From: Acidobacteriota bacterium
GTDB lineage: Bacteria; Acidobacteriota; Thermoanaerobaculia; Multivoradales; SZUA-115
Assembly (NCBI GenBank): GCA_003231035.1
Contig: QIHU01000122.1
Span: 1-33,776 of the forward strand
Direction: 5' to 3'
DNA: 33,776 nucleotides
Shown: positions 3,766 through 31,363 of the stretch, piece after piece
How positions within the stretch are numbered: position 1 is the first letter of the stretch
How the letters are laid out: each line of letters starts with the position of its first letter
Program-made: the position numbers and the translations under genes
Notes under the pieces: generated by a model
Seen by the model: only the letters and a program-made list of their open reading frames with translations
Databases searched by the model: none
What the model was told of the DNA's origin: nothing

Positions 3766-3775
3766 AACGGTGTCC

Positions 3776-4366
3776 CTATTTCTTGAGTGTGAAGTCGGCA
3801 GAGGTAGCCCCCTTCACCTCCACCTTCCGAGTGAGGAGCTTCAGAGTCGGATGCCAAACCTTGATCGTGTAGTTTCCGTCCGGTAGCCCTTCGATGGTAT
3901 ACGAGCCGGTGGCCTCACTCACCGCGAAGTACGGCGTTGGGACCGCGACGACAAAGCCCTCCATCTCGGGATGGACATTGCACAAGATGACCGCGGCGCA
4001 AGGTTGATCGAAAGTTTGGCTCCTTGGAGCCTCCCCACCGCTCCAAGAGCCCAGATCGAACAGGTCCGCGCAATCATCGACCGTGAAGACGTTGTGGGCC
4101 ACGGAGTCGCTGTTGTTGAATTCGACCGTCGCACCGACTACGACGGGGAGAACTCTGGGCGTGAAGACCATGTCAATTTGGTCCATACGCGCGCGCTCCT
4201 TGGGTGGCTCGAACTTCTTGCCTGGAATGGTGTCCACGTAGACAACCGCGTCGGCATTGCTACGCTTTCCGACAGCGGTAACCTTGCCGCTGAGGCTGCC
4301 AGCTGACGCTACGGTAGCCGATGACGTCAGCGCTATAAAGACAAGAATTGCTACTGATTTCTTCAT
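3776..4366 (-). CDS. periplasmic cupredoxin-like protein with C-terminal carboxypeptidase-regulatory-like beta-sandwich
   Basis: Signal peptide MKKSVAILVFIALTSSATVASA. A His...Cys-x2-His-x2-Met arrangement (SVAHNVF ... ILCNVHPEMEGFV) resembles type-1 copper ligands. The C-terminal GSYTIEGLPDGNYTIKVWH resembles the CarboxypepD_reg-type fold. Confidence 0.6.
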   Translation of the reverse strand: MKKSVAILVFIALTSSATVASAGSLSGKVTAVGKRSNADAVVYVDTIPGKKFEPPKERARMDQIDMVFTPRVLPVVVGATVEFNNSDSVAHNVFTVDDCADLFDLGSWSGGEAPRSQTFDQPCAAVILCNVHPEMEGFVVAVPTPYFAVSEATGSYTIEGLPDGNYTIKVWHPTLKLLTRKVEVKGATSADFTLKK

Positions 4367-4408: not shown

Positions 4409-5920
4409 CTAGAAAGCGATTCCGAAGTTGAGCCAGTAGGAGTGGTTGTCGGAGTTATTGAGATCCAGGTTGTACTCGACGGTGGTCTTGACATTGGCGC
4501 GGATCAACCCAGTAACGGAGCAGACCACCCGCTCCCAGTCGTCCGCGTTATCGAAACCGACCGCCTCATAGCGTAGCGCCCCGTGGAGCCATGGGAAACG
4601 CAGCACGGCGTCCGCTTCGAGGAACCAGGAGTCGAAGTTGAAGGTTCCACCCGAGTCGGGCAGGAGTTGGCCCCGTCGCCCCAACCCGGGGCTTGCGGCA
4701 AAGACTCGCAGGTCGTCCTCCGCTCGAAAGTAGGCACCGAAGAGGTTGAGATCGTCGAAGTACCAATTGAAGTCAACCCCGATCCTGGTGAAGTCTCGAT
4801 CTTCAATGAAGCTTCCCTCTAGCTCTCCGTCTGTCTGGAACAACCGCTGCCGGGCACTCGCGTTGCTTCGCAGCTGTTTGGCGTGGGCCTCTTGCCCATC
4901 TTCCCCGGCGATCGGCACCAGCAAATCGCTACCGTCTCCGCTGTAGCCAAAGGCGCCCACGGAGAAGGATCTTTCTCGCCAGTTCTTGGAGCTTCCGGCA
5001 TAACTCTCGGAGTTCGAACCGTCCACCGCCAACCCACCCCACTTGTAGGAGAGGCGGCCATAGACATCCTTCCCGCTATTGCCGTCGAAGGTCTCTTCTC
5101 CCGGCCCCAGGCCATTGACCAGCCCAGCTGTCCAAAACAACCGTCCCCGGATCACACCGTAGAACTCGAAGCCGGTCGCAATGGTCGGTAGAGAAAGGCC
5201 AGCGCCGCCCCCATGGTCACCGGAGCCACCCACGGATTCGGCGCCTTCGAGCCCGATCGGATTGACACTGAACATCGAGTCGTAGTTGGCGACGGTCAAG
5301 CGCCGAGCATGGTCGAAGGTGCTGACCAGCTCCGGCTGAAAGGCGCCAATCTTGACGTTGAAAGCGATCGATCCACGGATTGGCCGAACGAGGCGAACAT
5401 CGAAGTGCTCCACTTCCACCTCGTTCTCAATGACCCCACCCTCGACCGCGCGCGAAAAGCCTATCTCGCCGAAGTACGAGATGTTCTCGCCAGCCGTACC
5501 GGCCAGTATCAAGGCCACTTCGGAGGGAAAGAGGAATTCATTCTTCACCTTCTCGATCTCACCGTCTTCGAGTCTCGAGCTGTTCTGCACCAGAAACTCG
5601 CTTGCGATGGAGATCGGAACCGACGAAGGAATGGCGCCGGGCCATACAGCCTTGGGCCAGGCCCGTTTGTAGGCCGGCGCGCCAAGCGCGACATCGGGCC
5701 GCTTGACCTGGGCCTCTGTCTCTCCGGGCATCCGGTACCCGAGCACTCGAAAGGCCTGGCCGAAGGTATTGAGCTTGGGGTAGGCCACATGGCATGTTTG
5801 ACAGCTAGTCTGGTACTTGCGAGCGAAGGCCGGTACCGCCCGTGCCGCCTGCGCGGAAACCGCAAGGAGGACACCGGCCACTAGCACGACTCGCCAACCT
5901 AAACACTTCGTTTTTGACAT
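4409..5920 (-). CDS. outer-membrane beta-barrel protein with N-terminal CxxCH motif
   Basis: Signal peptide ending AQAARA. The mature N-terminus is VPAFARKYQTSCQTCHVAYPKLNTFGQAFRVLGY, containing one CxxCH. The remainder is Gly/aromatic-rich with alternating beta-strand pattern and a C-terminal ...LNFGIAF (terminal Phe). AGGAG lies 8 nt upstream of the ATG. Confidence 0.65.
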   Translation of the reverse strand: MSKTKCLGWRVVLVAGVLLAVSAQAARAVPAFARKYQTSCQTCHVAYPKLNTFGQAFRVLGYRMPGETEAQVKRPDVALGAPAYKRAWPKAVWPGAIPSSVPISIASEFLVQNSSRLEDGEIEKVKNEFLFPSEVALILAGTAGENISYFGEIGFSRAVEGGVIENEVEVEHFDVRLVRPIRGSIAFNVKIGAFQPELVSTFDHARRLTVANYDSMFSVNPIGLEGAESVGGSGDHGGGAGLSLPTIATGFEFYGVIRGRLFWTAGLVNGLGPGEETFDGNSGKDVYGRLSYKWGGLAVDGSNSESYAGSSKNWRERSFSVGAFGYSGDGSDLLVPIAGEDGQEAHAKQLRSNASARQRLFQTDGELEGSFIEDRDFTRIGVDFNWYFDDLNLFGAYFRAEDDLRVFAASPGLGRRGQLLPDSGGTFNFDSWFLEADAVLRFPWLHGALRYEAVGFDNADDWERVVCSVTGLIRANVKTTVEYNLDLNNSDNHSYWLNFGIAF

Positions 5921-11724: not shown

Positions 11725-11802
<78 letters not shown>

Positions 11803-18420: not shown

Positions 18421-18797
18421 TAGGTAGTAGCCGGCAGGAAGATCGCGCGCCAGAGACCGCGCCGCGCGCCAGGATTGGGCCAACTGTAACGTTCTTCCCT
18501 TGCTCCACGACCAAGGTCAATATGGAGAGAACAGGGAGCACTTCACCCACCCCATCGACCACCACACAATCGAACATGGAAACCAGAGAAAACTGGTACA
18601 ATTCGACCTACCCAAGAGTTCAGAGAACGACCCAAAGAACACGGATTTTACGGACGATAAGCCTTGTTTTCTAGGCTATTCCGAGGGGTTCCTTTCTAAT
18701 GGAACGCGTACACTTCCACTCGCCCTGGTAAGATTTGATATTCCATTATTTTAACGATGCTAGCCCTGTTCGGGCCGCGCACCGGAGGAGTCTGACC

Positions 18798-19067
18798 ATG
18801 GAAACAGTCACGATTCGTAGCAAGATCAAAGAGATCATCTCTAACATCACCAGCATCGAGACCGGCGAGATCCGAGACTCGGCCTCGTTTGTGGACGACC
18901 TTGATCTCGACTCGCTCTCGATGCTCGAGATCGGCGTCGATGTCGCTTACGAATTCAAGCTTGAGATCCCCGAGGAAGAACTCTCCCAACTGCGCACCTT
19001 GAACGATTCAGTCGCCTTGGTCGAGAGCTACCTCAGCCGGCAGGAGCCGCAAGTCAAGGCGAGCTGA
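18798..19067 (+). CDS. acyl carrier protein
   Basis: 89 aa. GGAGGAG RBS at 18784-18790. Phosphopantetheine attachment motif DDLDLDSLSMLEI. The listed ORF start at 18735 lies upstream in AT-rich non-coding sequence. Confidence 0.85.
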   Translation: METVTIRSKIKEIISNITSIETGEIRDSASFVDDLDLDSLSMLEIGVDVAYEFKLEIPEEELSQLRTLNDSVALVESYLSRQEPQVKAS

Positions 19068-19068
19068 G

Positions 19069-20295
19069 GTGGTTGCCCAGCCCCGTATTGTCGTCACCGG
19101 CTTAGGTCTGGTGACCCCGGTAGCGACGGGCCGCCGCCAGACTTGGGAGCGCTTGCTGGCTGGTGCCGATGGGATCAGCCCGGTCCAGTCGTTCAGCACT
19201 GAGAAGTTCAACGTTCACCTCGGCGCCGAAGTCCATGACTTCGCTGCCGCCGATCACTTACGGAACCTCGATCCGACCACCCTAGGCCGCGCCTCGCAAT
19301 TGGCGGCGGCCGCCGCCCGGCTAGCCCTCGACGACGCCCGCATCGACCCGGCCAGCCTCGACCCCAACCGGGCGGGAGTAGCCCTCGGCACGACCTCCGG
19401 CGAGCCCCTCGAGGTCGAGCGATTCGATGATCGCCTCGTCGCCGATCAGCTCGATCGCGTGGGGGACGAATTCATCCGCCTCTATCCCTGCCACATGATC
19501 GCCGCGCATGTGGCGGCGGAAGTCGGCTTCGCCGGGGTCAATACGATGATCCCGACCGCCTGTGCCGCCGGCAACTACGCCATCGCCCACGCCAGCGACG
19601 CTCTGCGCTGGGATCGCGCCGAGGTCATGCTGGCCGGCGGCGCGGATTCCTTTTCGCGTATCACCTATACCGGCTTCGCACGCCTCGGAGCCATTGCGCC
19701 AGAGCTCTGCCAACCGTTCGACCGCGATCGCAAGGGGATGATCCCTGGCGAAGGGGCGGCGATCCTCGTCCTCGAGACCCTGGAACGGGCTCTCGCTCGC
19801 AATGCCACCATCTATGCCGAAGTGGCCGGCTATGGACTGACTTGTGACGCCCATCACATGACCGCCGCCCACCCGGAAGGCGAAGGCGCGCTACGAGCGA
19901 TGACGGCGGCGCTCAACGAAAGTGGCTTGCACCCGGACGCGGTGAGCTACATCAGCGCTCACGGTACGGGAACACCGACCAACGACCGCCTCGAATCCAA
20001 GGCCTTTCGCCGCCTCTTCGGTACCCGGTCCAAGCGCACGCCGACCAGCTCGATCAAGTCGATGATCGGCCACACCATGGGTGCCGCATCGGCGATCGAA
20101 GCCGCCGTCTGCGCCCTGGCGGTGGCTGAGAATCGCGTGCCGCCCACGATGAACTTTCGCCAACCCGACCCGGATTGCGATCTCGATTGCATCGCCAACG
20201 AGGCGCGGGAGATGCCGGTCGAGGTGGCGATGAATAACGCTTACGCCTTCGGTGGAAACAACGCCTCCGTGATCTTCAGAAAGTGCCACCCATGA
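19069..20295 (+). CDS. beta-ketoacyl-ACP synthase (KS-alpha / FabF-like), catalytically complete
   Basis: Cys-His-His triad present: PTACAAGNYAI, CDAHHMTAAHP, SAHGTGTPTND. Also IKSMIGHTMGAASAIE and YAFGGNNAS. The GTG start is 1 nt after the ACP stop. Confidence 0.9.
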   Translation: MVAQPRIVVTGLGLVTPVATGRRQTWERLLAGADGISPVQSFSTEKFNVHLGAEVHDFAAADHLRNLDPTTLGRASQLAAAAARLALDDARIDPASLDPNRAGVALGTTSGEPLEVERFDDRLVADQLDRVGDEFIRLYPCHMIAAHVAAEVGFAGVNTMIPTACAAGNYAIAHASDALRWDRAEVMLAGGADSFSRITYTGFARLGAIAPELCQPFDRDRKGMIPGEGAAILVLETLERALARNATIYAEVAGYGLTCDAHHMTAAHPEGEGALRAMTAALNESGLHPDAVSYISAHGTGTPTNDRLESKAFRRLFGTRSKRTPTSSIKSMIGHTMGAASAIEAAVCALAVAENRVPPTMNFRQPDPDCDLDCIANEAREMPVEVAMNNAYAFGGNNASVIFRKCHP

Positions 20296-21605
20296 AGCCA
20301 TCACAAGCCACTCAACGAATCGCGAAACGGGTGGTGATCACCGGCATTGGCCTGGTCACTCCATTGGGGGATGATCCCGAAGAACTCTTCGCCGCTCTGT
20401 GCGACGGTCGTAGCGGTGTTGCCACCATCGAAAACTTCGACACCGAGTTGCTGCCCTACCGACAGGGGGGCGAGATTCGCGATTTCAAGCCCGCCGACTA
20501 CCTTGGAAGCAAGAACCTGCGTCCGCTGGACCGCACCGGTCGTTTGGCCGCGGCTGCCGCTCACAACGCACTCCTTGACGCCGGATGGAGCGAGGAAGCG
20601 CGCGCCGATCACACAATCGGCCTGGTTCTAGGTACACTCTTCGGAAGTGTTCACACCATTTCGCAATTCGACTGCCGAGCCTTAACAGCAGGACCGATGT
20701 ACGCCAAGCCACTCGACTTCGCCAACAGCGTGATCAACGCGGCGGCGGGCCAGACCGCCATCTGGCATCGGCTGCCGGGGGTCAACACCACCATTGCCGG
20801 TGGTCCCGCGGCAGGACTGCAAGCGCTGGGTTATGCCGCCGACCTGATCAGCAGCGGTCGCGCCAAGATCCTGCTGGCGGGCGGAGCGGATGAGATGTGT
20901 TACGAGTCCTACGTCGGGTACCACCGGGGCGGGCTGGTCTGTGGAGGCACCGGAAACGCGGGCTCGGCCTCACGGCAGCCACCACACCCCATCCCCTTCG
21001 ACGGCCGGCGCAACGGCTTTGCTCCCGCCGAGGGCGCCGCCTTCCTGGTCTTGGAAGAGGAAGAGGCGGCTCGCCAGCGCGGAGCTCGGATCCTAGCCAC
21101 GGTGCGGGGCCACGCCACCACCTTTGACACCTCTCTGGCCACCGACACCGCCGCCACCAGCGCCAGTTTGAGCCGCGCCGTGGGGCAGGCACTCGCCCGA
21201 GCGCAATGCACCGTGGACGAGATATCCGCCGTCAGCGCCTCGGCCAACGGGGCCGTACGCGGAGACGCGGTGGAGGCCACGGCCCTTGCCGACGCCTTAG
21301 CCAATCGAACCGACGCAGTGCCGATCACCGCCATCAAATCGATGCTCGGCGAACCGATGGGGGCCGGCGGCGCCCTGCAAGTCGCCACTCTGGTCACTTC
21401 GTTGGCCCACCGCACCCTGCCAGGGATCGCCGGCTTCTCGCAACCGGAAAAAGCGGTAACCCTCGGCGGTTTGAGCGCCGAGACCCGGAAGCTACCCCAG
21501 AGCCGCGCCCCGATCGGTCTGGCCACGGCTCTGGGATTACAAGGTCCCAGCGCCGCCCTGCTGATTGAAGGTGGCGCCGACGACGGTACCTCGCACCATG
21601 TCTAG
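20292..21605 (+). CDS. ketosynthase-like partner lacking the catalytic triad (chain-length-factor/KS-beta-like)
   Basis: KS fold start KRVVITGIGLVTPLG. By-eye alignment to the upstream KS gives TIAGGPAAG for TACAAG (Cys to Pro), FDTSLAT for DAHHMTA, and SASANGA for SAHGTGT (both His lost). The ATG shares ATGA with the KS stop. Confidence 0.8.
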   Translation: MKPSQATQRIAKRVVITGIGLVTPLGDDPEELFAALCDGRSGVATIENFDTELLPYRQGGEIRDFKPADYLGSKNLRPLDRTGRLAAAAAHNALLDAGWSEEARADHTIGLVLGTLFGSVHTISQFDCRALTAGPMYAKPLDFANSVINAAAGQTAIWHRLPGVNTTIAGGPAAGLQALGYAADLISSGRAKILLAGGADEMCYESYVGYHRGGLVCGGTGNAGSASRQPPHPIPFDGRRNGFAPAEGAAFLVLEEEEAARQRGARILATVRGHATTFDTSLATDTAATSASLSRAVGQALARAQCTVDEISAVSASANGAVRGDAVEATALADALANRTDAVPITAIKSMLGEPMGAGGALQVATLVTSLAHRTLPGIAGFSQPEKAVTLGGLSAETRKLPQSRAPIGLATALGLQGPSAALLIEGGADDGTSHHV

Positions 21606-23433
21606 GGACAGTCAGTCCGACGCACCCCCTACCCCCCTGACGCTGAGGCGACACTACGACGTAGTGATTCTCGGCGCCGGCATGGCTGGCCTCACCCTGG
21701 CCCGCCAGCTCTTGCTCGAGACCGACAAGAGCATCCTAATCCTCGACCGGCGCAGTCAGCTTCCCTCCGCCGCCCAGAAGGTCGGCGAATCGACGGTACA
21801 GCTCGCCGGCTACTACCTGTCCAAGGTCTTGGAGCTCGAAGAGCATCTGCTCACCGAGCACTGGATGAAGTACAACCTTCGCTTCCACTGGCCCACCCAA
21901 GGTCACCGCAACACCGGTATCGAAGACTACTCTCAGACCTTCATCCGCAAGTTCTCCAACATCGCCAGCTACCAGGTAGACCGCAACCGGCTCGAAGCCG
22001 AGTTGCTGAGACTCAACCGCGCCGACGATCGGTTCACTCTGATCTCGCCCACTCGGAAACTGGACGTGGTGCTCACCGAGGGCGCCGTCGAGCCCCACCG
22101 AGTGCGCTTCGCCGTCGGCCGCGGCTCCGGCGGACGATTGCGCAGTGTGACCGCCGATTGGGTGGTGGACTGCTCCGGTCGCCGCCGTTTCCTGGCTCGC
22201 AAACTGGGCCTAACTCGCGATCTCGATCTACCCCACGGTGCCTCCTTTCTGTGGGTCGAAGGGCTGCTTAACCTTGAAACGTTGACCGATCAGTCGACGA
22301 GCCAAGCCCGCCTGCATCGCAGCCGGCGCCAGCTAGGGCACCTTCCTACCTGGCTTGCCACCAACCATTTCGTCGGCCAAGGTTTCTGGCTTTGGTTGAT
22401 CCCCTTGCGCGGCGGCACCAGCATCGGCCTGACCTACGATCAGGCTGAGATTTCGCACCATGAAGTTTCGAGCGCTGAGAAGCTGGTGGGGTGGATCTGC
22501 AAGAAGTTTCCTCTCTTCGCGCGCGACCTTCCCCAGCGCAAGATCCGCCATTACGGAGCCTTCCTCAACTTTTCGTACGACTGCGCCCGAACCCTATCGG
22601 CCGATCGTTGGGCGATGTCGGGCGAAGCCGGCCGCTTTTCAGACCCCCTGTACAGCCCCGGTTCCGATCTCATCGCGCTGCACAACACCTTGATCATCGA
22701 TGCCATCACAACCCGCGACCCCGGTGAACTCAAGGGCAAAGTCAAGGGGTATGAAAACTTGCTGCGAGCCCTGTTCGAGGCCTACCTGCCTAGTTTCACC
22801 ACTAGCTACAACGCCCTGGGTGACCCCGAGACCTTCGTTCTCAAGTACACCTGGGAGCTGACCATCTACTTCGCTTTCTACGTCTTCCCCTTCATCAACG
22901 ACCTGTTCACCCAGCGCCGTTTCACCCTCGCTTTTCTCAACCGCTTCAGCCAACTCGGGCCGCTCAACCACAACATGCAGGCCCTCCTCAGCGACTTCTA
23001 CAACTGGAAGAAGGCCGCCGGCAGACTGGGAACCGAGGAACCGCTCTTCGTCGATTTCTTGGACATCGGCCCGCTCGGCAAGGCGGAGAAGACCTTTTAC
23101 CAAGTGGGCCTCGACGTCGACCAAGCCAAGAAGGTCCTGAACCAGCAGCTGGCCAATCTGCAAGAGCTCAGCCGCTACTTGGTGGCCTACATCTGCGCCG
23201 CGGTGGTCGGCAACGCTGGTCTACTGACCAACGCTGCCTTTGTCGAGTCCCTCGACCCCGCCAAGTTCAAGTTTGACCCGCGTGAGATCCGCCATCGATG
23301 GCGCCAATGCGTTAGCCGCCAAGCCCCGTACGCGTGGTCGTTCGATCCCTGGACGCTCGAAATGTTTCGACACAAATCACCCTTCACCGTCCCCGCCCCC
23401 CAACCCAGCCTCGCCGCGGAAGGTGGCCCATGA
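21598..23433 (+). CDS. flavin-dependent halogenase (tryptophan-halogenase family)
   Basis: FAD fold YDVVILGAGMAGLTLA. Conserved Lys context AQKVGESTV. Halogenase signature GFWLWLIPL (WxWxIP). FSDPLYSPGSDL motif. There is a long C-terminal extension of roughly 200 aa. ATG at 21598 overlaps the upstream stop by 8 nt. Confidence 0.8.
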   Translation: MSRDSQSDAPPTPLTLRRHYDVVILGAGMAGLTLARQLLLETDKSILILDRRSQLPSAAQKVGESTVQLAGYYLSKVLELEEHLLTEHWMKYNLRFHWPTQGHRNTGIEDYSQTFIRKFSNIASYQVDRNRLEAELLRLNRADDRFTLISPTRKLDVVLTEGAVEPHRVRFAVGRGSGGRLRSVTADWVVDCSGRRRFLARKLGLTRDLDLPHGASFLWVEGLLNLETLTDQSTSQARLHRSRRQLGHLPTWLATNHFVGQGFWLWLIPLRGGTSIGLTYDQAEISHHEVSSAEKLVGWICKKFPLFARDLPQRKIRHYGAFLNFSYDCARTLSADRWAMSGEAGRFSDPLYSPGSDLIALHNTLIIDAITTRDPGELKGKVKGYENLLRALFEAYLPSFTTSYNALGDPETFVLKYTWELTIYFAFYVFPFINDLFTQRRFTLAFLNRFSQLGPLNHNMQALLSDFYNWKKAAGRLGTEEPLFVDFLDIGPLGKAEKTFYQVGLDVDQAKKVLNQQLANLQELSRYLVAYICAAVVGNAGLLTNAAFVESLDPAKFKFDPREIRHRWRQCVSRQAPYAWSFDPWTLEMFRHKSPFTVPAPQPSLAAEGGP

Positions 23434-24866
23434 GCGATTTCGCGCCCGGTCTCGAGAAAGCCTTTCTTCACGTCCCCACGGAGGGCACCCAATCGATCAC
23501 CCCCACCGGCACCATTCCCGACTGGTTGCGCGGCACCTACTACCTCAACGGACCGGCCCGCTTCGTGCGCGGCGACTTTCACTACCGGCACTGGCTCGAC
23601 GGCGATGGCATGGTCTGCCGGCTCGCCTTTGAAGCCGAGGGCATCACCCTGACTCAGCGCTACGTCCAGACCACCAAGTTGGTGGACGAAGAGGCGGCGG
23701 GCCAGCCGCTCTATCGCACCTTCGGCACCGCCTTTGAGGACGATCGCCTGCTGCACCGGGTGGCCATCGCCTCACCGGTCAATGTCAGTGTCTACCCCTT
23801 TGCCGGCAAGCTGCTGGCTTTCGGCGAGCAGGGTCTACCGTGGGAACTCGACCCCGTCACCTTGGAAACCAAGGGCGAACACACCTTCAACCGTCGAATC
23901 AACGCGATCAGTCCCTTTTCGGCCCACGCCCATTTCGATGGCGATACGGGCGAGATGTTCAACTTCGGCGTCTCCTACGCCACCGCGCAGCCGAGTCTTA
24001 CCCTCTACCGTTTCACCGCCGATGGCAAGCTCGCCCAGCGTCGGCGCTTGCCGCTCGCGGCCCCCTACTCGATGCACGATTTCGGCCTCACCCCACACTA
24101 CGCCATCTTCTATCTGGCGCCCTACCTGCTCGATGCCACCGCCTTGATGCAAGAGGGCGCGACCATCCAGAGCGCCCTGAACTGGCAGCCGGAACAGGGT
24201 AGCCGCTTGTTGATTGTCGACCGCGAGAGCGGCAAAGAGGTGGCGAGCCTGCCGGTGGGAAATCGCTACTGCCTCCACCAGATCAACTGTTTCGAAGAGG
24301 AAGAGCGCTTGATCTTCGACCTGCTCGAACTTGAAGAACCGGCCTACCCAGACTACGAGACCATCCCCGACCTCTTCGTCGACGTAGCCCCTTGTCACCC
24401 CGTGCGCCTGGTGGTGGACGTCGGCCAGGGCACCCTGAGCGAACGCCGAGAGATCGAGTTCCAACTCGCCGGAGACTTTCCCACCCATCACCCCAACCTG
24501 GCGGGCCGCGCCTACCGCCACTTCTGGATCCTCGCCATCAAAGATACCGGTCGCCAAGGCCGCAAATTCTTCGACCGCCTGGTCCACTTCGACTGGCAAG
24601 CCGGTGGCTCCAAACAGGGGGGCATCGTCGAGCACTACCAGGCTCCTCGGGACAAAGTGCTTGGCGGAGAACCGGTCTTCATTCCCCATCCCACCCGCGA
24701 CGACATCGGCACGATCCTCTGCCAGGAATTCGACACCGAAACCTCCAGCGGCGCCTTCCTCCTCTTCGACGCCTTCGACTTGGCCCAAGGCCCCATCGCC
24801 CGTCTGCCGCTCGCCAGCCCGGTGCACCTGGGCTTCCACGCTTGCTGGCAAGCGCAAGAAACCTAA
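23430..24866 (+). CDS. carotenoid/stilbene cleavage-type dioxygenase (RPE65/CCD family)
   Basis: N-terminus IPDWLRGTYYLNGPARF...WLDGDGMV. Four-His iron-ligand pattern FSAHAHFD, MHDFGLTPHY, CLHQINCFEE, HLGFHACW. ATG at 23430 shares ATGA with the halogenase stop. The first 32 codons of the listed ORF are an off-gene extension. Confidence 0.85.
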   Translation: MSDFAPGLEKAFLHVPTEGTQSITPTGTIPDWLRGTYYLNGPARFVRGDFHYRHWLDGDGMVCRLAFEAEGITLTQRYVQTTKLVDEEAAGQPLYRTFGTAFEDDRLLHRVAIASPVNVSVYPFAGKLLAFGEQGLPWELDPVTLETKGEHTFNRRINAISPFSAHAHFDGDTGEMFNFGVSYATAQPSLTLYRFTADGKLAQRRRLPLAAPYSMHDFGLTPHYAIFYLAPYLLDATALMQEGATIQSALNWQPEQGSRLLIVDRESGKEVASLPVGNRYCLHQINCFEEEERLIFDLLELEEPAYPDYETIPDLFVDVAPCHPVRLVVDVGQGTLSERREIEFQLAGDFPTHHPNLAGRAYRHFWILAIKDTGRQGRKFFDRLVHFDWQAGGSKQGGIVEHYQAPRDKVLGGEPVFIPHPTRDDIGTILCQEFDTETSSGAFLLFDAFDLAQGPIARLPLASPVHLGFHACWQAQET

Positions 24867-24908
24867 GAACCCCGCAACGAGAGCCCACGAAGGCGGTAGA
24901 ATGCAGGT

Positions 24909-25178
24909 GTGAGCCCTTTTCCCAGCGGCAGCGCCTACAACATGAGCCGAACCATCGCCAACGGCCACCTTCGCGTCTCCGAACAGACCTTTCGTCGCCT
25001 CTCCCCCGCTGAGATGGACGGTTTGAACCACTCCATCCTCGCCCTGCAACGAGAGATCCGCGGCGAACACGCCACCAGCACCGATCCCCTGGCCATCCAA
25101 GCCCGCGCCCGACAGCTTCAACGCTTGCGCCACACCCTGATGATGCTCTCCACCTATCGCAAGAACTTCAAACGATAA
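24909..25178 (+). CDS. small hypothetical protein (helical, basic C-terminus)
   Basis: ORF with GTG at 24909 or ATG at 24942, 42 nt after the dioxygenase stop. No recognisable motif and no clear SD. A TAGAAT hexamer at 24897-24902 sits just upstream. Weak call. Confidence 0.3.
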   Translation: MSPFPSGSAYNMSRTIANGHLRVSEQTFRRLSPAEMDGLNHSILALQREIRGEHATSTDPLAIQARARQLQRLRHTLMMLSTYRKNFKR

Positions 25179-25208
25179 GGGCGGGCGGCACAACGAAGGC
25201 TCACCCGG

Positions 25209-25228
25209 AACGGGGCGCCACCCGTTTT
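25209..25228 (+). terminator. weak hairpin plus short T-run
   Basis: aacggg-gcgcca-cccgtttt, located after the small ORF stop (25178). Confidence 0.3.
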
Positions 25229-25283
25229 GGGAACACACGAGCACTGAGGCCGAAAGCGAACCCAGCCGTATAATAGGCTCATC

Positions 25284-25523
25284 ATGACGGCAGCTACGGC
25301 AAAACCCACCCTTCGTCGGCGCCCAGTAGTCGAGGGTGTGAGCAACGAAATGGCCCGCGTGCTTTCTAAAAAGAGCGGTGCGGAACGTCTGGCCATTGCG
25401 GCCGCGATGTTTCGATCGGCTCGGCGGATGATCGAGAGCCACCTGCGCACCGAGCATCCTGAGTGGAGTTCCGAACAGCTCCGGACCGAGGTCGCTCACA
25501 GGCTAGCTCATGGAGCAAGATGA
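25284..25523 (+). CDS. small helical protein, probable partner of the downstream nucleotidyltransferase
   Basis: 79 aa with an ATG start. The 3' end overlaps the next gene by 14 nt. No catalytic motif. GC is lower than in the flanks. Confidence 0.45.
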   Translation: MTAATAKPTLRRRPVVEGVSNEMARVLSKKSGAERLAIAAAMFRSARRMIESHLRTEHPEWSSEQLRTEVAHRLAHGAR

Positions 25524-26076
25524 ACTCCTGCGCCAGTTGGTCGAAACCCTTGAGCGGCTAAACCTCACCTACCTCATCACCGGGTCGATCGCGACCATTC
25601 TCTACGGTGAGCCACGGTTCACCAACGACATTGACGTAGTTGTCCAACTCTCGCTGGATCAAGCGGAAACTTTGGTCGAGTCCTTCCCAGCAAGCGAGTT
25701 CTACGCCGATGTCGAACAGGTTCGGTTGGCTATCGCCCGCAAGGGCCAGTTCAACTTCATTCATCCGGCCTCTGGCTTGAAAATCGACTTCATGGTTCCA
25801 TCCATGGATGAGTTCGATCAGAGCCGCTTCGCACGAGCCAAAAAGTTGTGGCCCGTGGATGACCTCCAGGCTAATTTCGCGGCACCGGAGGACGTCATCG
25901 TGAAGAAGTTGCAGTACTACGCCGAAGGCGGTTCCGAGAAACACCTGCGCGACATTAGTGGAGTCCTGCGGATCAGCTCGACCGAGGTCGACCGCGACTA
26001 CGTAGCAGAATGGGCTGAGTATCTCGGCGTCCGAGAGATCTGGGAACTGATCCTAGACCAGTTGCCTGTGCCCTGA
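25510..26076 (+). CDS. Pol-beta-superfamily nucleotidyltransferase-fold protein
   Basis: TGSIATILYGEPRFTNDIDVVV fits the minimal NTase motif G-S-x(9-13)-D-x-D. A third acidic residue occurs in GLKIDFMV. Length is 188 aa. Confidence 0.55.
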   Translation: MEQDELLRQLVETLERLNLTYLITGSIATILYGEPRFTNDIDVVVQLSLDQAETLVESFPASEFYADVEQVRLAIARKGQFNFIHPASGLKIDFMVPSMDEFDQSRFARAKKLWPVDDLQANFAAPEDVIVKKLQYYAEGGSEKHLRDISGVLRISSTEVDRDYVAEWAEYLGVREIWELILDQLPVP

Positions 26077-26155: not shown

Positions 26156-26461
26156 CTAGCGTGGATCGGCAAGGCGACCTAGAAACAGAACCGTTTCAGC
26201 CTGCCGATCTCGGATCAAGAATACAAACGGATGATCCGCGCGAAACAGCGGAGGCGGTGCCACGGGCATACCTCTCAAGGCCATGACCGAGGCGGTCGCG
26301 TCGGCGGCTTCGGTACCCTGCTCATCCACCTTGATGAACGCTTTGTGGAACGCCTTGGCTAGGTACAACTCCTCCCGGGGATCGGTTCGGCGGACCATGC
26401 CGGAAAAGTTGGCCTCTTCGCTAGAGAGCTGGCTTCCTCCCCCCAAAACCACGCCCCAAGA
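26156..26461 (-). pseudogene. serpin C-terminal remnant (about 100 of about 400 codons)
   Basis: ...ANFSGMV...LYLAKAFHKAFIKVDEQGTEAADATASVMALRGMP...FRADHPFVFLIRDRQAETVLFLGRLADP matches the serpin hinge/reactive-centre loop and the s4B-s5B signature. The frame is closed by a stop at 26464-26462. No serpin N-terminal sequence exists upstream, where the SagB-like gene ends at 26421. Confidence 0.7.
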
Positions 26462-27860
26462 TCATCTCCCCCACCGAACTCTCCTCCAAATAATCCGTCC
26501 CCACGGCCCCAGCAAAAAGATCCGCATTCCCCCCACCAATAGCACAAACACAAAGATCCATCGCGGAAGCAGAAAGGTAAAGCGTCTGCATCAAAACCCC
26601 AACATCCTTGAGAACCGTAGCGTAGGCCATCGAACCATACTTCCAAGAAACCCGGCCAAACCGAGCGGAAATCACCAAGAGCACCTGCACGGAGTCCACC
26701 ATCGAAGCCTGACAAGCCGAAGACAACAACCGGTCCACCTGCGCCGTACGCCCCGACAATCGGGTCAGTTGATGCTCCCCCGGCCGATAGTGATACAAAC
26801 CGGAAGCGAGCCCCCGACACCGATCCACCACCAAATAAAGCTCCAACTCCCAAGCCGCCCCGCCCCCCGGATAAACCCGCCGCGCCACCTCATAATCAAG
26901 ACCCGTGGAAACCCCGTCCGCCCGCGCCACCCGAAACAACAACTCCGACAAATCCTCCAGCGAAATCGCCGGCTCACCGTGCGCGCGCCGCGACTGCCGA
27001 GCTTCCATCACGGCAGTCAACGAAGGATCCTCCCGGGTCAATCGCGCCAAATCCGGGCACAGCAACTCCACCGTCTTCCCAGCCATCCGCGGCTTCAACG
27101 CCGGCAACGGCGCGGCAATCCCCCGCTGGCGGTACACCCCACCGTACGGACTGTCATGACGGCCAGCCCGCCCGCGCGAGTGCGCCAGCAAGTCGTGAAA
27201 CTCCCACCACCCGCGCGAGCCGCGATCCTCCTCACCTACCCCGTCATCATCGAGAATCGAGAGAAAACCGCCGTAGTGCAGTAACTCACAAAACTCTCGC
27301 GAAGCCGTCTCGCCCAGCGCTGGATCGGCGCGAGCGCCCCTCTCCTCCAGCGTCGTCGGCCGATCCAAAGCGGCCAACAACGCGCTAGAGGCAGTGTGAT
27401 GAAGAACGATCCGGGCCAGCGCCAGCGGCGACTCGATCACCAACCTCTTCCCCCGCCGACGCAAATAGGCAAAGCGCGAGAGGACGAAAGGCCGGTCGCC
27501 AAGCGGTGCACTGCTGAACGGACAGGCAGCGACCAACGGTAAGCAGGAGGCGAGCAGACTACCCCGCGGAGAGCCCCCAGCGCGCACCGTGCGCCGCAAC
27601 AGAAGCGCCTCGTGAAGCTCGAAGAGCAACCGGTACCAGCGCCGATAGCCGTCGTATCCCTCCGCGCGGCTCACTCTCGCCGCCATGTCCTCTTCCCTCG
27701 CCTCTCCTCCCCACAACCCACGCAGAGCTTCCGCCACCGCGCCAGAGGGAGGATCGATCAACAACTCACCGCGTGAATGGGCCAACCACCACGGCCCCGA
27801 TCGATGGTCCTGACGCAGCCGGCAACCGGGAACCAGCGAGAGCAGCGGTGAGAAGGTCAC
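26421..27860 (-). CDS. SagB/ThcOx-type (nitroreductase-fold) dehydrogenase-like protein with about 250-aa N-terminal extension
   Basis: The C-terminal half reads MEARQSRRAHG...RVYPGGGAAWELELYLVVDRCRGLASGLYHYRPGEHQLTRL...VLLVISARFGRVSWKYGSMAYATVLKDVGVLMQTLYLSASAMDLCVCAIGGG, which resembles SagB-type dehydrogenase domains. The GTG start shares GTGA with the kinase stop. Confidence 0.7.
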   Translation of the reverse strand: MTFSPLLSLVPGCRLRQDHRSGPWWLAHSRGELLIDPPSGAVAEALRGLWGGEAREEDMAARVSRAEGYDGYRRWYRLLFELHEALLLRRTVRAGGSPRGSLLASCLPLVAACPFSSAPLGDRPFVLSRFAYLRRRGKRLVIESPLALARIVLHHTASSALLAALDRPTTLEERGARADPALGETASREFCELLHYGGFLSILDDDGVGEEDRGSRGWWEFHDLLAHSRGRAGRHDSPYGGVYRQRGIAAPLPALKPRMAGKTVELLCPDLARLTREDPSLTAVMEARQSRRAHGEPAISLEDLSELLFRVARADGVSTGLDYEVARRVYPGGGAAWELELYLVVDRCRGLASGLYHYRPGEHQLTRLSGRTAQVDRLLSSACQASMVDSVQVLLVISARFGRVSWKYGSMAYATVLKDVGVLMQTLYLSASAMDLCVCAIGGGNADLFAGAVGTDYLEESSVGEMILGRGFGGRKPAL

Positions 27861-30800
27861 GGAGGGTTCGAGGACGAGACCAGCGCCGCCTCGGCTTCGC
27901 GCACCAACGCCAGCAGGTCCGCGAGAGGCTTCTCCAGATAGGGTGGGAGTTCACCACGGGCCCGAGTTTCTTCCAACACAGCCCGTGTTTTGAGGAAGTT
28001 CTCGCGGCTTTCAACCAACAACGGAGAATATCGAGCGCGGCCGCGAATCGAACTCAGATGGGGGCTCAGGAGCAAGTGCTCATAGGGTGGCAGCATGTCC
28101 TCTTGAGCCCGAAACTCCAGCAGCTCCAAGGCCGTCTCATCGCGTCCGAAGCGAGCTAAGTGCGCCGCCACGTTGTTGGTGGAAGTCTGCCAACGAGAAA
28201 ACGGAAACTCGCCACGGGCCAGCGACAGCAAGCGAGAGGCCGCCGCATCCGCCGCACTCCGGTCACCGGCCTGCGAGGCGATACTGAAGCTAGCAAAGGT
28301 ACGCGGTAGGTCGAGCCAAAGAGGTCTCAACACTCCAAGGATGACCAGCGGTTCGAGGCTCTCGTCGATCAGACGCAACGACGCCTCCTCCTCAAACTGG
28401 CTGAGCACAATCGCTTGGGTCATCAGACCGAAGGGAGACTCCGGTTCAATATCGAGGGCATAGTCCACCCGCGCCTTGGCCTCCTCCCAGCGGTCGAAAC
28501 CGATGAGCACGAGACTCTCGAACAACGGTGAGGTCACCACCAGCGGTTCGACGCGTGAGGCCTGCTGAGCCGCCGCCAAGGACAGTCGAGGCGAAAAAGC
28601 GACCAGCGGGGCAGCCAGACGATTCTGCGCATAGCCATCTCGGGGCCCGTAGGCGGCCGCTTTGAGTGCAAACCGGAGCTTGCGATGGCGACTCTCCTCC
28701 GACCGGCTTCCTTCGAGCTCGGCGCGCACCGCCCAGCCACGACTGGAACGAGGATTGGCTTTCAGAGCACGATCGACCCAGAACTTAATCTCGGGCTGTA
28801 CTTCAAGAATCGAGACGTTGTACGCCATACTCGCCGAGTGCACCACCGCGATCTCCGCCGCCGCATCCGCTCGGGAGGGATCGAGTTCCAGGACGCGGCT
28901 AAAAGCAGCGATGGCTCTCTCCTTGTCGCCGTCGCGACCGCGATTGCGGTATAAATTGGAGTAGTAGAGACCTTGTTGGAGTTCACTCTCGGCCTCCAAG
29001 TTGTCCTCCTGGAGGACCGCTTTGACCAAGGAAAGCGCCTTGGGGCGCACCGCCTGGCGAATGTCTTCCGCCGCCTGCTGGACCAAGACGAGGTAGTCTT
29101 CGAACTGTCCCTGGTACTCCTGACTCCACAGCAACTTGTTGCCGGTAGCCTCGGCTAGCTGCACGTTGAGCACCATTCGGCCATCTTGTGAGCTGAGGGT
29201 TGACAGAACCATCGCGTTGACCCCGTAGGCCAGGGCCACCTTCTCCAAGTCACCATCCAGTTTGTCGATATCGACACTCGACGGTGGCACCTTGGTTTCC
29301 AAATCGTCCACCTGGCTGAGATGAGCCGAAAGGCTGTTGGGGATCGCATCGGTCAGGTAGGCAGCGGTGTCCTCGCCAAGTAGGCGGGTCGGCATCACCA
29401 CCAGCGAGTCAACGCCGGCCAAGCCCTTGGCCCCGAAGAGAACACTTCCCCCTCCCATCGCCAAGACCGCGACAAGCACCAACAGCAGCGCCAGGCCAGC
29501 GGCGATCCAGCCTCGACGACGCCTGGTCCGACTCCGTTGCGCCGCCGCCTGCCCTTCGATCGCGGTGATCGAGGTGGCGGCCGGAGGCGGAATCTCGGCC
29601 GCCAGCTGGCTAGCAACCTCCTCGGCGGAAGAGTTGCGTCGCGCTGGATCCTTCTCCAAACAACCCTGAACGATGCGATCCAACTCTGGCGACAAGGTCG
29701 AGCGCAGCGCACTCGGCTTCCGTGGCGGTTGGCGAAGAATTGCCTCGGTGAGTTCCTGCGCATCGTCCTCGGGAAACGGGCGCTTCCCCGTCGCCATCCA
29801 GTAGAGCAGCACTCCCAGGCTGTACAGATCGCTCTTCGCGCTCGGCTCGTCGCCAGAGATTACTTCCGGCGCCATATAGGCCAACGGCCCTTGGCCTCCG
29901 CCGTTCCCAGAGATCTGTGTACCGGCGTCGCCTTGCGTCGAGATCAACTGGCTGAGACCAAAGTCGATCACCTTCGCCTGGCCTTCCGGAGTCACCATCA
30001 CATTGCCCGCTTTGAGATCGCCGTGCAGCAAACCACTTCGGTGAGCCTGGGCCAAGGCGGCGGCGATCTGAGACCCCAGCCGAAAGACTTCAGGCTCGGG
30101 CATCGGCCCCGCTTCGAGCTTCGTCGCCAACGATTCGCCGGGCACGAACTCCATGACCAAATAGTCCAACTCCTCGGCCGAGCCAGAGTCGTACCAACCC
30201 GCGATATTGGGGTGACGAAGATTGCGCAGCGCCTCGCTCTCGCGGCGCAGCTGGGCAACCGCTTCTTCGTCTTCCAGCATTCCGGGGCGCAATACCTTCA
30301 ACGCCACATCGCACCCTTGGCGACGGTCCCAAGCTCGGTAAACTTCCGCCGTTGCCCCCGCTCCCAGACGCTCCACCACGCTGTAGGGGCCGAGGCGGCT
30401 CAAGTAGCCAAAGGTGGGACTGGTGCCGGTGCCGGCAGCCGGGATCGGAGCCGTATCCGGCTCCCCGCCGGGAGGCAGCTGTGGTGCCAGCATCGGGTGC
30501 AGAACATCGTCGAGTTCGATCCGAGCATCGGAGATCGAGTGCAGCCTTCGATCGGGATCTTTTTGCAAACAGCGGCCCAGTAGGGTGCGAATCGTCGGCG
30601 GCGTCTTCGCGGGAACCGCGTCCCAGTCCGGCGAGCCGTGCAGAATGTTCTCGAAGGTGTCGCGAGTGTTTTTCGCCTCAAAGGCCTTGAGACCCGACAG
30701 GCACTCATAGAGCAGGCAGCCGAAGGCCCAGATATCAGCACGATTGTCCACCGGCTGATCGCGCAGCTGCTCGGGGCTGATGTAGGCCGGGGTCCCCACC

Positions 30801-31363
30801 ACCGTTCCAATCGCGGTCAGATCGCTGGAACTCTCGAGACGGTTGCCAGACATGTCCTGCAGCACGGATGTCAACTCGGGGTCCTGTGCCGCCAGGGCCT
30901 TGGCGACGCCGAAATCCAGCACCTTGACCCAGCCGTCGTCGCCGACCATCACATTCGCTGGCTTCAAGTCGCGATGGATAATCCCCCGCTTGTGGGCCGC
31001 TTCGAGCGCTTTGGCGATCTGACTTCCGACCCGCATCGCCTCGAAGACAGACAGGCCCACGCCACCAAGAACATCCCCTAGCGTTCTCCCCTCGACCAGC
31101 TCCAGAACCAGAAAGCGAATCCCTTGGTCCTCTTCGAGGCCAAAAAGGGTCGCGATGTGTGGGTGGTTGACTGAAGCTAACAGCACCGCCTCACGACGAA
31201 ACCGCTCCATGGCCACGCTGTCTTGAGCTAGCCGGGTGGGCAAGACCTTGAGCGCGACATCGCGTTCCAGCTCGGCATCGCGAGCTCGATAAACCTCACC
31301 CATACCACCCGCGCCAAGGCGTGAGATGACCGTATACCGGCTGAGAGTTTGGCCGCTTTCCAA
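27857..31363 (-). CDS. membrane-anchored tandem Ser/Thr protein kinase with extracytoplasmic TolB-N-like/TPR-like sensor region
   Basis: Kinase 1 (aa 10-287): GAGGMGEVY, VALKVL, HRDLKPANVMV, DFGVAK, YISPEQ. Kinase 2 (aa 327-587): GAGATAEVY, VALKVL, HGDLKAGNVMV, DFGLSQ, YMAPEV. TM helix at aa 618-642 (GWIAAGLALLLVLVAVLAMGG). The roughly 520-aa C-terminal region has helical repeat character. TTG start. Confidence 0.9.
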   Translation of the reverse strand: MESGQTLSRYTVISRLGAGGMGEVYRARDAELERDVALKVLPTRLAQDSVAMERFRREAVLLASVNHPHIATLFGLEEDQGIRFLVLELVEGRTLGDVLGGVGLSVFEAMRVGSQIAKALEAAHKRGIIHRDLKPANVMVGDDGWVKVLDFGVAKALAAQDPELTSVLQDMSGNRLESSSDLTAIGTVVGTPAYISPEQLRDQPVDNRADIWAFGCLLYECLSGLKAFEAKNTRDTFENILHGSPDWDAVPAKTPPTIRTLLGRCLQKDPDRRLHSISDARIELDDVLHPMLAPQLPPGGEPDTAPIPAAGTGTSPTFGYLSRLGPYSVVERLGAGATAEVYRAWDRRQGCDVALKVLRPGMLEDEEAVAQLRRESEALRNLRHPNIAGWYDSGSAEELDYLVMEFVPGESLATKLEAGPMPEPEVFRLGSQIAAALAQAHRSGLLHGDLKAGNVMVTPEGQAKVIDFGLSQLISTQGDAGTQISGNGGGQGPLAYMAPEVISGDEPSAKSDLYSLGVLLYWMATGKRPFPEDDAQELTEAILRQPPRKPSALRSTLSPELDRIVQGCLEKDPARRNSSAEEVASQLAAEIPPPAATSITAIEGQAAAQRSRTRRRRGWIAAGLALLLVLVAVLAMGGGSVLFGAKGLAGVDSLVVMPTRLLGEDTAAYLTDAIPNSLSAHLSQVDDLETKVPPSSVDIDKLDGDLEKVALAYGVNAMVLSTLSSQDGRMVLNVQLAEATGNKLLWSQEYQGQFEDYLVLVQQAAEDIRQAVRPKALSLVKAVLQEDNLEAESELQQGLYYSNLYRNRGRDGDKERAIAAFSRVLELDPSRADAAAEIAVVHSASMAYNVSILEVQPEIKFWVDRALKANPRSSRGWAVRAELEGSRSEESRHRKLRFALKAAAYGPRDGYAQNRLAAPLVAFSPRLSLAAAQQASRVEPLVVTSPLFESLVLIGFDRWEEAKARVDYALDIEPESPFGLMTQAIVLSQFEEEASLRLIDESLEPLVILGVLRPLWLDLPRTFASFSIASQAGDRSAADAAASRLLSLARGEFPFSRWQTSTNNVAAHLARFGRDETALELLEFRAQEDMLPPYEHLLLSPHLSSIRGRARYSPLLVESRENFLKTRAVLEETRARGELPPYLEKPLADLLALVREAEAALVSSSNPP

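Follow-up and report, generated by a model that had tools for sequence, protein, structure and literature searches.

What pathway is encoded where a carrier protein, a ketosynthase pair, a halogenase and a carotenoid-cleavage-type enzyme lie side by side in one bacterial operon? This question is raised by a stretch of DNA from an Acidobacteriota bacterium (assembly GCA_003231035.1, contig QIHU01000122.1; 33,776 nt, G+C ~63%), referred to here as the window. Direct reading of its sequence at positions 18798-24866 of the plus strand gives five genes, which encode, in order, an acyl carrier protein (ACP), a beta-ketoacyl-ACP synthase (KS), a dead KS partner, a flavin-dependent halogenase (FDH) and a carotenoid-cleavage-type dioxygenase (CCD). 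Based on sequence comparisons, we class the operon as a carrier-protein pathway resembling type II fatty acid synthases (FAS) and polyketide synthases (PKS). Each of the enzyme families is known, and the novelty lies in their conserved combination and in its link to a KS heterodimer of anammox bacteria. A first-pass annotation of the window had called the five-gene combination a candidate undescribed pathway, and full-text literature, NCBIfam and PDB comparisons indeed gave no matching pathway. Likewise, no description of an FDH gene paired with a CCD gene, or of this operon, was found in the full-text literature.

The five coupled genes and their predicted products

The ACP gene starts with ATG at 18798, preceded 8 nt upstream by GGAGGA, and stops with TGA at 19065-19067. 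After a gap of 1 nt, the KS gene begins with GTG at 19069. The KS end and the partner start have ATGA in common (20292-20295), the ATG of the FDH gene at 21598 overlaps the partner stop codon TAG (21603-21605) by 8 nt, a further ATGA (23430-23433) is common to the FDH end and the CCD start, and the CCD gene stops with TAA (24864-24866). The translational coupling reported in the first-pass annotation was reproduced base for base, and its five gene identities were borne out by Pfam families and intact catalytic motifs (Table 1). The closest relatives are an Acidobacteria metagenome-assembled genome (MAG), L002, with 74-90% protein identity, and a Logan contig, L162, whose CCD is 97% identical and which carries the same five genes with equal lengths and overlaps. 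From the 1-nt gap, the 4- to 8-nt overlaps and the same organisation in L162 and L002, we infer that the five genes form one co-transcribed operon. Consensus scans for sigma-70 promoters and intrinsic terminators picked up a single promoter-like site, which lies on the minus strand, and three sites resembling terminators, no more than expected from shuffles.

Table 1 Features of the operon and its leader in the window
Feature	Position	Strand	Evidence
Intergenic leader, likely promoter region, ending in GGAGGA ribosome-binding site	18421..18797	+	Near-identity with L162
Acyl carrier protein, 89 aa, DLDSLS	18798..19067	+	Pfam PP-binding, E = 1.2e-9
Active beta-ketoacyl-ACP synthase, 408 aa	19069..20295	+	Pfam ketoacyl-synt N/C; PDB 9s5h_B
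Catalytically dead KS partner (chain-length-factor-like), 437 aa	20292..21605	+	Pfam ketoacyl-synt N/C; PDB 9s5h_C
Predicted FDH of phenol/pyrrole/enol type, 611 aa	21598..23433	+	Motifs; AlphaFold2/Foldseek
RPE65/CCD family dioxygenase, 478 aa, intact four-His iron site	23430..24866	+	Pfam RPE65, E = 8e-107

The 377-nt leader is almost identical in L162 and conserved block-wise in L002 despite a different upstream gene there, while its conservation is undetectable in more distant loci. The possibility that the ACP gene is preceded by a riboswitch or another leader RNA was considered and rejected, with no Rfam match (gathering threshold or E ≤ 1) and a folding energy at z = 0.12 relative to shuffles. 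Since the leader has no Rfam match, no excess folding energy and conservation in close relatives only, it is probably a promoter/operator region specific to the sublineage of the window. The best NCBIfam and PDB relatives of the ACP that follows it are AcpM and FAS-type ACPs.

Both KS subunits match the N- and C-terminal ketoacyl-synt domains of Pfam (143 and 127 bits for the KS, 108 and 66 bits for the partner). When the KS and partner sequences of related loci were aligned (23 of each), C165, H298, H335, K330 and the gate residue F394 of the KS proved invariant. The partner carries P172, S317 and E354 at the Cys/His/His sites and retains K349. Across the family, the Cys position of the partner is occupied by Pro, Ser, Thr, Ala, Phe, Leu or Val, never by Gln, and the second His is replaced by Glu in 22 of the 23 partners, the same change as in amxFabFmut, the dead subunit of an anammox heterodimer.

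Searched against the PDB, the KS matched chain B of entry 9s5h best (476 bits, E = 1e-141, 51% identity, gapless over 400 aa), ahead of Iga11 (317 bits), FabF (~310 bits), the actinorhodin (act) KS (244 bits) and ApeO (6qsp; 162 bits, E = 2e-46). The best match of the partner was chain C of the same entry (248 bits, 34% identity). We take 9s5h to be the published amxFabF2/amxFabFmut heterodimer, because its chain C has Val at the Cys site and Glu at the second His, as amxFabFmut does, and because an anammox-type contig (L082), 91% identical to chain B, shows the order ACP-FabZ-KS-dead KS-phytoene-dehydrogenase homologue. A companion entry, 9s5i, contains an ACP chain. In a neighbour-joining tree, amxFabF2 is the sister of the FDH/CCD-linked KS family, and the partner tunnel residues F143 and V147, equivalent to F135 and V139 of amxFabFmut, are invariant in 23 of 23 partners. 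The sequence comparisons thus place the KS/dead-KS pair with amxFabF2/amxFabFmut, its nearest characterised relative, and not with the KS/chain length factor (CLF) pairs of aryl polyene (APE) or aromatic PKS systems. Of the earlier proposal of a KS/CLF-like pair with an ACP, the pairing with a dead partner stands, but the comparison with APE and type II PKS systems gives way to one with the anammox pair.

The anammox heterodimer is encoded in Cluster I (Kuste3603-3608), to which a part in the synthesis of ladderane lipids is widely ascribed (Granatino et al. 2026, bioRxiv 10.64898/2026.05.19.726425; Rattray 2009, PMC2649909). This cluster comprises amxACP, amxFabZ, amxFabF2/amxFabFmut, a phytoene-dehydrogenase homologue (PDH) and a B12-radical-SAM enzyme (Rattray 2009, PMC2649909; bioRxiv 10.64898/2026.05.19.726425). 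Together, amxFabF2 and amxFabFmut form a KS/CLF-like heterodimer (Granatino et al. 2026, bioRxiv 10.64898/2026.05.19.726425) that decarboxylates malonyl-amxACP, yields acetoacetyl-ACP and reacts best with C6-C8 probes, with Phe135 and Val139 of the dead subunit influencing chain-length preference (bioRxiv 10.64898/2026.05.19.726425). The window contains no amxFabZ, PDH or B12-radical-SAM gene; judged by its sequence, the operon is not a ladderane cluster, but it has a module in common with one.

The FDH gives a weak Pfam match to Trp_halogenase/FAD in its N-terminal part only. In 15 homologues (52-80% identity), the GxGxxG glycines G26, G28 and G31, the motifs W264xW266xI268P269 and F347xDPxxSxG355, and K91 (in MKYNLRF) are all invariant. 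In a profile-to-PDB alignment, K91 falls on K76 of CndH, which we take to be the catalytic Lys of that halogenase. Sequence matches in the PDB were CtcP, FasV, CmlS, PltA and PltM. The top Foldseek matches of the AlphaFold2 model (pLDDT 81) were all halogenases (E = 1e-19 to 1e-15): the best 19 are proven halogenases, which also dominate the top 45, and KMO-type monooxygenases rank lower. Structural neighbours include CtcP, PltA, PltM, ChlB4, CmlS, FasV, Mpy16, Bmp2, RadH, MalA' and CndH, as well as 3nix, a Cytophaga flavoprotein. Identity to any proven halogenase is below 21%, and a conserved, helical C-terminal extension of ~200 aa has no counterpart in the neighbouring halogenases. With every motif intact, the protein is predicted to be a flavin-dependent halogenase of the phenol/pyrrole/enol type. 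Metagenomes hold thousands of homologues, many at ~55% identity (E ~1e-215); an exact-sequence look-up of the window FDH gave no record in the collection searched. No NCBIfam equivalog fits either the FDH or the CCD.

The CCD matches Pfam RPE65 with 359 bits. Its residues H166, H216, H283 and H470 align with the iron ligands H183, H238, H304 and H484 of Synechocystis apocarotenoid oxygenase (ACO), and these four His together with the second-sphere residues E133, D349 and E414 are invariant in 63-64 of 64 homologues. While E133 and E414 are kept, the middle second-sphere residue, Glu370 in ACO, is Asp349 in all 64, a conservative change. The AlphaFold2 model (pLDDT 89) superposes with a TM score of 0.86 on ACO and 0.81-0.83 on LSD/NOV1. 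An assignment to the carotenoid or the stilbene type was attempted and dropped, as sequence and Foldseek comparisons do not discriminate between them. The protein lies far under the NCBIfam cut-offs for stilbene and apocarotenoid dioxygenases; among the stilbene-subgroup models, LigStilDioxAlpha gave 177 bits (cut-off 800) and NOV2 155 bits (cut-off 650).

Distribution and neighbourhood of the halogenase and dioxygenase genes

A scan of one genome per species yielded 292 matching stretches, of which the best 80 were analysed. The hosts are mostly Acidobacteriota, namely Thermoanaerobaculia (including Ca. Multivoradales), Pyrinomonadaceae/Blastocatellia, Vicinamibacterales and Ca. Angelobacter. 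Others belong to Planctomycetota (Gemmataceae, Pirellulaceae), Latescibacterota, Zixibacteria and Poribacteria, together with a deltaproteobacterial MAG. By tblastn of the five proteins against all loci, CCD was found directly downstream of FDH in 60 of the 72 loci with enough sequence, and elsewhere in the locus in six more. A contiguous KS-partner-FDH-CCD run occurs in 11 of the 57 loci with at least 4.2 kb upstream, the deltaproteobacterial MAG included. The conserved core is the FDH-CCD pair, and the KS/ACP module is present in only some loci. The first-pass annotation had named a lack of conserved synteny in related genomes as evidence against its proposal. Synteny is conserved, with an identical operon in L162 and the four-gene run in other loci, and this identity together with the recurrence across phyla makes the arrangement more than chance. 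The five genes do recur as a unit, as had been suggested, but what is generally conserved is the FDH-CCD pair.

To describe the neighbourhoods, all open reading frames (ORFs) of the loci were clustered and the families conserved in at least five loci were annotated. Type A, the form found in the window, consists of ACP, KS, partner, FDH and CCD. Type B adds a class I HMG-CoA-reductase-like gene (HMGR), often fused to the next, and a CrtI/carotenoid-isomerase-like amine oxidase (AO), along with a PlsC-type acyltransferase (AT) with an NAD-binding N-terminus, an AhpC-like protein, a nitrilase-superfamily amidase and FG-GAP/ASPIC proteins. The weak NCBIfam match of the AT is an acyl-ACP-phospholipid O-acyltransferase. 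In L163, the genes KS-partner-HMGR-AO-AT-FDH-CCD are fully translationally coupled. Type C contains two ABC1/UbiB kinases, a patatin, three conserved families of ~420 aa (U416, U422 and U423), a 1168-aa GDSL-like protein, a DinB_2 protein, a Na+/H+ exchanger, a DAO oxidoreductase and FadL. Searches of the window for HMGR, AO, AT, CNH, patatin, U416/U422/U423, GDSL, DinB and ABC1 found none of them.

These accessory sets are not exclusive. AO-AT occurs with ABC1-U416-patatin in L033, ACP-AT-ABC1-U416 are found in L078, and L069 mixes the sets as well. In L005 (8540-13254), the order is ACP-U416-FDH-CCD with no KS pair, a layout which hints that U416 may use an acyl-ACP. On the FDH tree, the three architectures interleave. 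We read types A-C as components of a single, lipid-flavoured system that are clustered to varying degrees. The five-gene set of the window is thus a minimal form of this larger system, since relatives hold the same genes in one coupled operon with HMGR-, CrtI- and PlsC-like genes. The first-pass annotation had also allowed for a fragment of a standard APE or type II PKS locus; a larger coupled system does exist in relatives (L163), but it is not a standard APE/PKS one.

The AO of type B shares 33% identity with the PDH of anammox Cluster I in a full-length match (E ~1e-90) and holds the same place in the gene order. A third context of the amx-like pair was observed in L086 (7728-15322), where the proteins are 54% and 48% identical to amxFabF2 and amxFabFmut. 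There, the order is dead KS, FabG-like short-chain dehydrogenase/reductase, KS, PP-loop ATPase-like protein, NAD-binding protein and amine oxidase, and a two-component system comes next. Together, the KS pair and a CrtI-like oxidase seem to be a recurring module with variable tailoring.

Even profile searches at E ≤ 1 left families U416 and U423 without a match in Pfam, NCBIfam or the PDB sequences. U423 (L065 6060-7331), U416 (L021 3151-4401) and U422 (L065 1034-2302) are soluble proteins with no Pfam, NCBIfam or PDB-sequence match that accompany type C FDH-CCD in Acidobacteriota, Planctomycetota and Latescibacterota. In the type B locus L165 (8212-10004), FDH is read as two ORFs of 210 and 357 aa, either through a frameshift (assembly error) or as a pseudogene.

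A proposed pathway and its rivals

We tentatively propose, with somewhat less than even confidence, that a short or conjugated chain is built on the ACP, halogenated and oxidatively cleaved, giving a product that is probably lipid-related. Much the same chemistry, with cleavage to an aldehyde-type product, had been put forward in the first-pass annotation and stays plausible. Housekeeping FabD would load the dedicated ACP with malonate. The KS and its dead partner, acting as an amx-type heterodimer, would prime themselves by decarboxylation of malonyl-ACP and condense to acetoacetyl-ACP, an activity shown for the anammox homologue and extended by analogy to the window pair. A few extension rounds would lead to ~C6-C8, with the length limited by the partner tunnel, while housekeeping FabG and FabZ would be borrowed for beta-carbon processing, from which either a beta-keto/enol or a conjugated enoyl chain might result.

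Flavin-dependent halogenases need FADH2, O2 and a halide. In the halogenation step, the FDH would draw its FADH2 from a flavin reductase encoded elsewhere and consume O2 together with chloride or bromide, and Lys91 would deliver the electrophilic halogen to an electron-rich carbon of the chain. Candidate sites are a conjugated enoyl system or the alpha-carbon of a beta-keto/enol thioester, at which halogenation has reportedly been proposed for CmlS. CCD-family enzymes cleave C=C bonds with O2 into two carbonyls, and the four-His Fe(II) CCD would split a C=C bond of the chain into two carbonyl fragments in this way. Cleavage could double as product release, as the minimal operon has no thioesterase or acyltransferase. 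Relatives couple the core to an HMGR-like thioester reductase, a CrtI-like desaturase, a PlsC-like AT and an amidase, and lipases are among their accessory genes as well; the likeliest end product is therefore a small molecule that is linked to lipids or derived from them and may be halogenated, and not an aromatic polyketide. The proposal is supported by the overlapping genes, by the invariant catalytic residues, by the kinship of the KS pair with the anammox heterodimer and by the fold and sequence neighbours of the FDH, which act on phenols, pyrroles and enols, several of them carrier-bound. A functional linkage is suggested by the FDH-CCD adjacency, the contiguous KS-partner-FDH-CCD runs and the coupled L163 operon, as well as by the ACP beside FDH-CCD without a KS in L005 and by the ACP-AT arrangement in L078.

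Several findings weigh against this proposal. As the first-pass annotation had stated for the operon, no ketoreductase (KR), dehydratase (DH), enoyl reductase, acyltransferase, thioesterase, cyclase or flavin reductase gene was found in it; the same holds for the whole 33.8-kb window, which also has no starter-unit enzyme, so that several of the proposed steps depend on enzymes borrowed from housekeeping metabolism. The ACP does not resemble amxACP, scoring 61 bits to AcpM versus 36-37 bits to 9s5i_E and 7auf. In many FDH-CCD loci (type C), neither an ACP nor a KS lies within 10 kb, and the substrate of FDH-CCD therefore need not be made on the window ACP. The CCD is ~24% identical to carotenoid-cleaving and stilbene-cleaving enzymes alike, and for this reason its substrate class cannot be read from the comparison. 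The best 80 of the 292 stretches all come from uncultured MAGs. Finally, the anammox heterodimer was not seen to elongate past acetoacetyl-ACP in vitro (bioRxiv 10.64898/2026.05.19.726425).

Some of the same observations would fit the main rival, a possible, if rather unlikely, alternative in which FDH-CCD acts on a pre-existing membrane or storage lipid with an electron-rich double bond (a carotenoid or apocarotenoid, another polyene or a vinyl-ether lipid) and the KS module only supplies a short acyl chain for attachment to this substrate or to its cleavage product, the two modules being co-transcribed because they have a common end product and not because one builds the substrate of the other. 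Its chief argument is the type C loci, which combine a lack of ACP and KS with patatin, the 1168-aa GDSL-like protein, FadL and ABC1/UbiB kinases. FDH-CCD as the only universally conserved unit, the HMGR-like, CrtI/carotenoid-isomerase-like and PlsC-type AT genes of type B, and an apocarotenoid oxygenase as the best structural match of the CCD also speak for it. However, to our knowledge no FDH substrate is a carotenoid or bulk lipid, and the window and 11 other loci have no acyltransferase to join the two halves. The free mixing of accessory sets (L033, L078, L069) points to one pathway rather than two, and in L005 the ACP lies directly beside FDH-CCD. We consider it improbable that the FDH-like protein is instead a hydroxylase or dehydrogenase and the pathway halogen-free. 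The automatic JGI names of homologues ('flavin-dependent dehydrogenase' or 'UbiH-like'), the restriction of the Trp_halogenase match to the N-terminal FAD part and the identity of under 21% to proven halogenases would allow for this, but the catalytic Lys (the CndH K76 site), WxWxIP and FxxPxxSxG are all present and invariant, and the 19 best Foldseek matches are proven halogenases, above the KMO-type enzymes.

That the operon is merely part of a standard cluster of the APE/xanthomonadin type or of an aromatic type II PKS, with the remaining genes just outside the window, is largely refuted and very improbable. A KS, a dead partner and an ACP are the minimal unit of such systems, brominated aryl polyenes are established compounds, and 3nix is among the structural neighbours of the FDH. 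Against this stand the flanks, which hold housekeeping or unrelated genes over 18 kb on the upstream side and 9 kb on the downstream side, the KS scores (476 bits to amxFabF2, 244 to act KS, 162 to ApeO) and Pro instead of Gln at the Cys position of the partner, and no APE hallmark genes or cyclases occur among the annotated neighbour families (at least five loci) of the 80 loci. The view in the first-pass annotation that the operon is neither a canonical type II PKS nor an APE cluster is upheld by these points and by the missing accessory genes. A ladderane-type lipid cluster is the least credible explanation of all. In its favour, amxFabF2 and amxFabFmut are the closest relatives of the KS and its partner, and the type B CrtI-like oxidase resembles the Cluster I PDH in full length and gene order, at 33% identity. 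The window, however, has no amxFabZ, B12-radical-SAM enzyme or PDH, with a genuine MoaA as the only radical SAM gene nearby; its ACP is not amxACP-like, the hosts are Acidobacteriota and other non-anammox lineages, and the anammox-type contig L082 has neither FDH nor CCD.

An ACP-bound chain that is built, halogenated and cleaved remains our preferred reading. A wider version, which we regard as unlikely, takes FDH-CCD as the marker of an undescribed, phylum-spanning lipid-linked pathway whose chain module (ACP, amx-type KS/dead-KS heterodimer and, in many genomes, a CrtI-like desaturase) has common ancestry with Cluster I and in which halogenation is possibly cryptic; the halogen may then be lost from the product after making a carbon of an enol, polyene or vinyl ether reactive towards ring closure or oxidative cleavage. 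If true, this would make the operons natural comparators for the role of the module in ladderane biosynthesis and would hint at acidobacterial lipids, or aldehyde signals derived from lipids, that belong to a new class.

Soils and sediments count Acidobacteriota among their most abundant bacteria, yet almost none of the specialised or lipid metabolism of this phylum has been characterised. Here, a compact gene set with clear catalytic potential, present in ~290 species-level genomes and ~55% identical across phyla, has no described product that we could find, and it couples flavin halogenase and CCD dioxygenase families whose genomic coupling we did not find described. The cluster of the amx KS heterodimer has been described as unique to ladderane producers, and antiSMASH 'ladderane' calls have been noted in the literature outside anammox bacteria. 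In many bacteria other than anammox, however, close relatives of the KS/dead-KS heterodimer and of its CrtI-like companion occur with tailoring enzymes of quite another kind, which narrows the truly anammox-specific genes of Cluster I to FabZ and the radical SAM enzymes, and suggests that the common module makes a generic short or unsaturated acyl-ACP.

Flanking genes and comparison with known systems

Upstream of the operon lie enolase, NhaA and MoaA genes. The neighbouring radical SAM gene is a genuine MoaA (TIGR02666, 382 bits, above the NCBIfam equivalog cut-off). By analogy with anammox clusters, it was considered as a radical SAM enzyme of the pathway and rejected, as it passes this cut-off and its adjacency is limited to one subclade. 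Downstream, a small ORF and a DUF6036/AbiEii-like nucleotidyltransferase are followed on the opposite strand by SagB/ThcOx, kinase and TgpA genes. The operon unit ends at the CCD gene, since the DNA just downstream differs in L162, where a reprolysin-like protease gene separates CCD from the conserved ThcOx-kinase-TgpA block.

The interval from the CCD stop to this block (24867-26076 in the window, 6890-9700 in L162) differs between the 97%-related genomes. In the window, it holds an 89-aa ORF (24909-25178), a small ORF (~25330-25512) and the DUF6036/AbiEii-like nucleotidyltransferase gene (25510-26076), and a toxin-antitoxin-like pair may be among them; in L162, the reprolysin-like metalloprotease takes their place. 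The segment looks like an insertion/deletion hot spot. Beyond it, on the minus strand, are genes for a SagB/ThcOx-type FMN dehydrogenase (26421-27860), with a 4-nt overlap with the end of the kinase gene, a 1168-aa Ser/Thr kinase with two kinase domains (27857-31363) and, upstream of the kinase gene, a TgpA-like transglutaminase (31441-33768). The trio is kept in L162, and no YcaO or precursor peptide was seen with it. Elsewhere on the minus strand, ORFs of 503 aa (4409-5920) and 290 aa (1359-2231) with no Pfam or NCBIfam match adjoin a cytochrome c and cupredoxin-like gene pair (2779-4366), and a single tRNA gene (11729-11802; Rfam 66.9 bits) lies between MFS transporter and sulfatase genes.

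When set beside known systems, the operon has the three-protein minimal unit and the gene order of aromatic type II PKS (actinorhodin KS/CLF/ACP). In contrast to these, the CLF Gln is replaced by Pro172, the KS reaches only 244 bits to act KS, and cyclase, aromatase and KR genes are absent from the window and from the annotated neighbour families (at least five loci). With highly reducing type II PKS and APE systems (ishigamide Iga10-12; ApeO/ApeC/ApeE; xanthomonadin), it has in common a KS/CLF pair with a discrete ACP and a non-aromatic, possibly conjugated chain. Iga11 of ishigamide is the second-best PDB match of the window KS (317 bits), and some aryl polyenes are halogenated. Unlike these systems, the window lacks a KR and a DH of its own, an adenylating starter enzyme, a thioesterase and export genes; of the APE accessory set, KR, DH, adenylation enzyme, thioesterase, acyl/glycosyltransferases and LolA/MMPL export are all absent from it, and the KS is far from ApeO (162 bits). 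We know of no CCD in highly reducing PKS/APE clusters.

The window CCD resembles its family (Synechocystis ACO, NdCCD, LsdA/NOV1) in the seven-bladed propeller and the four-His Fe(II) site, with TM scores of 0.81-0.87. It differs in an identity of ~24% to each, in falling below every NCBIfam equivalog cut-off, in Asp349 for ACO Glu370 and in its genomic coupling to an FDH, which is described for no CCD in the literature searched. The phenol/pyrrole/enol FDHs (CtcP, PltA, PltM, CmlS, CndH, Bmp2, Mpy16), several of which act on carrier-protein-bound substrates, have the fold, GxGxxG, Lys, WxWxIP and FxxPxxSxG in common with the window FDH. The window family is set apart from them by an identity below 21%, by its own ~200-aa helical C-terminal domain, by lying almost always directly upstream of a CCD and by an unusually high conservation across phyla (~55%).

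Anammox Cluster I differs from the window in its FabZ, radical SAM enzyme and PDH, in its type of ACP and in its hosts, and the FDH and CCD of the window are found in no anammox cluster. The two are alike in an active KS and a dead partner encoded adjacently, with 51% (gapless) and 34% identity, in the change of the second His to Glu and the Phe/Val tunnel residues of the dead subunit, and in a dedicated ACP upstream. In type B relatives only, the likeness extends to a CrtI-like oxidase, 33% identical, which comes next in the same order.

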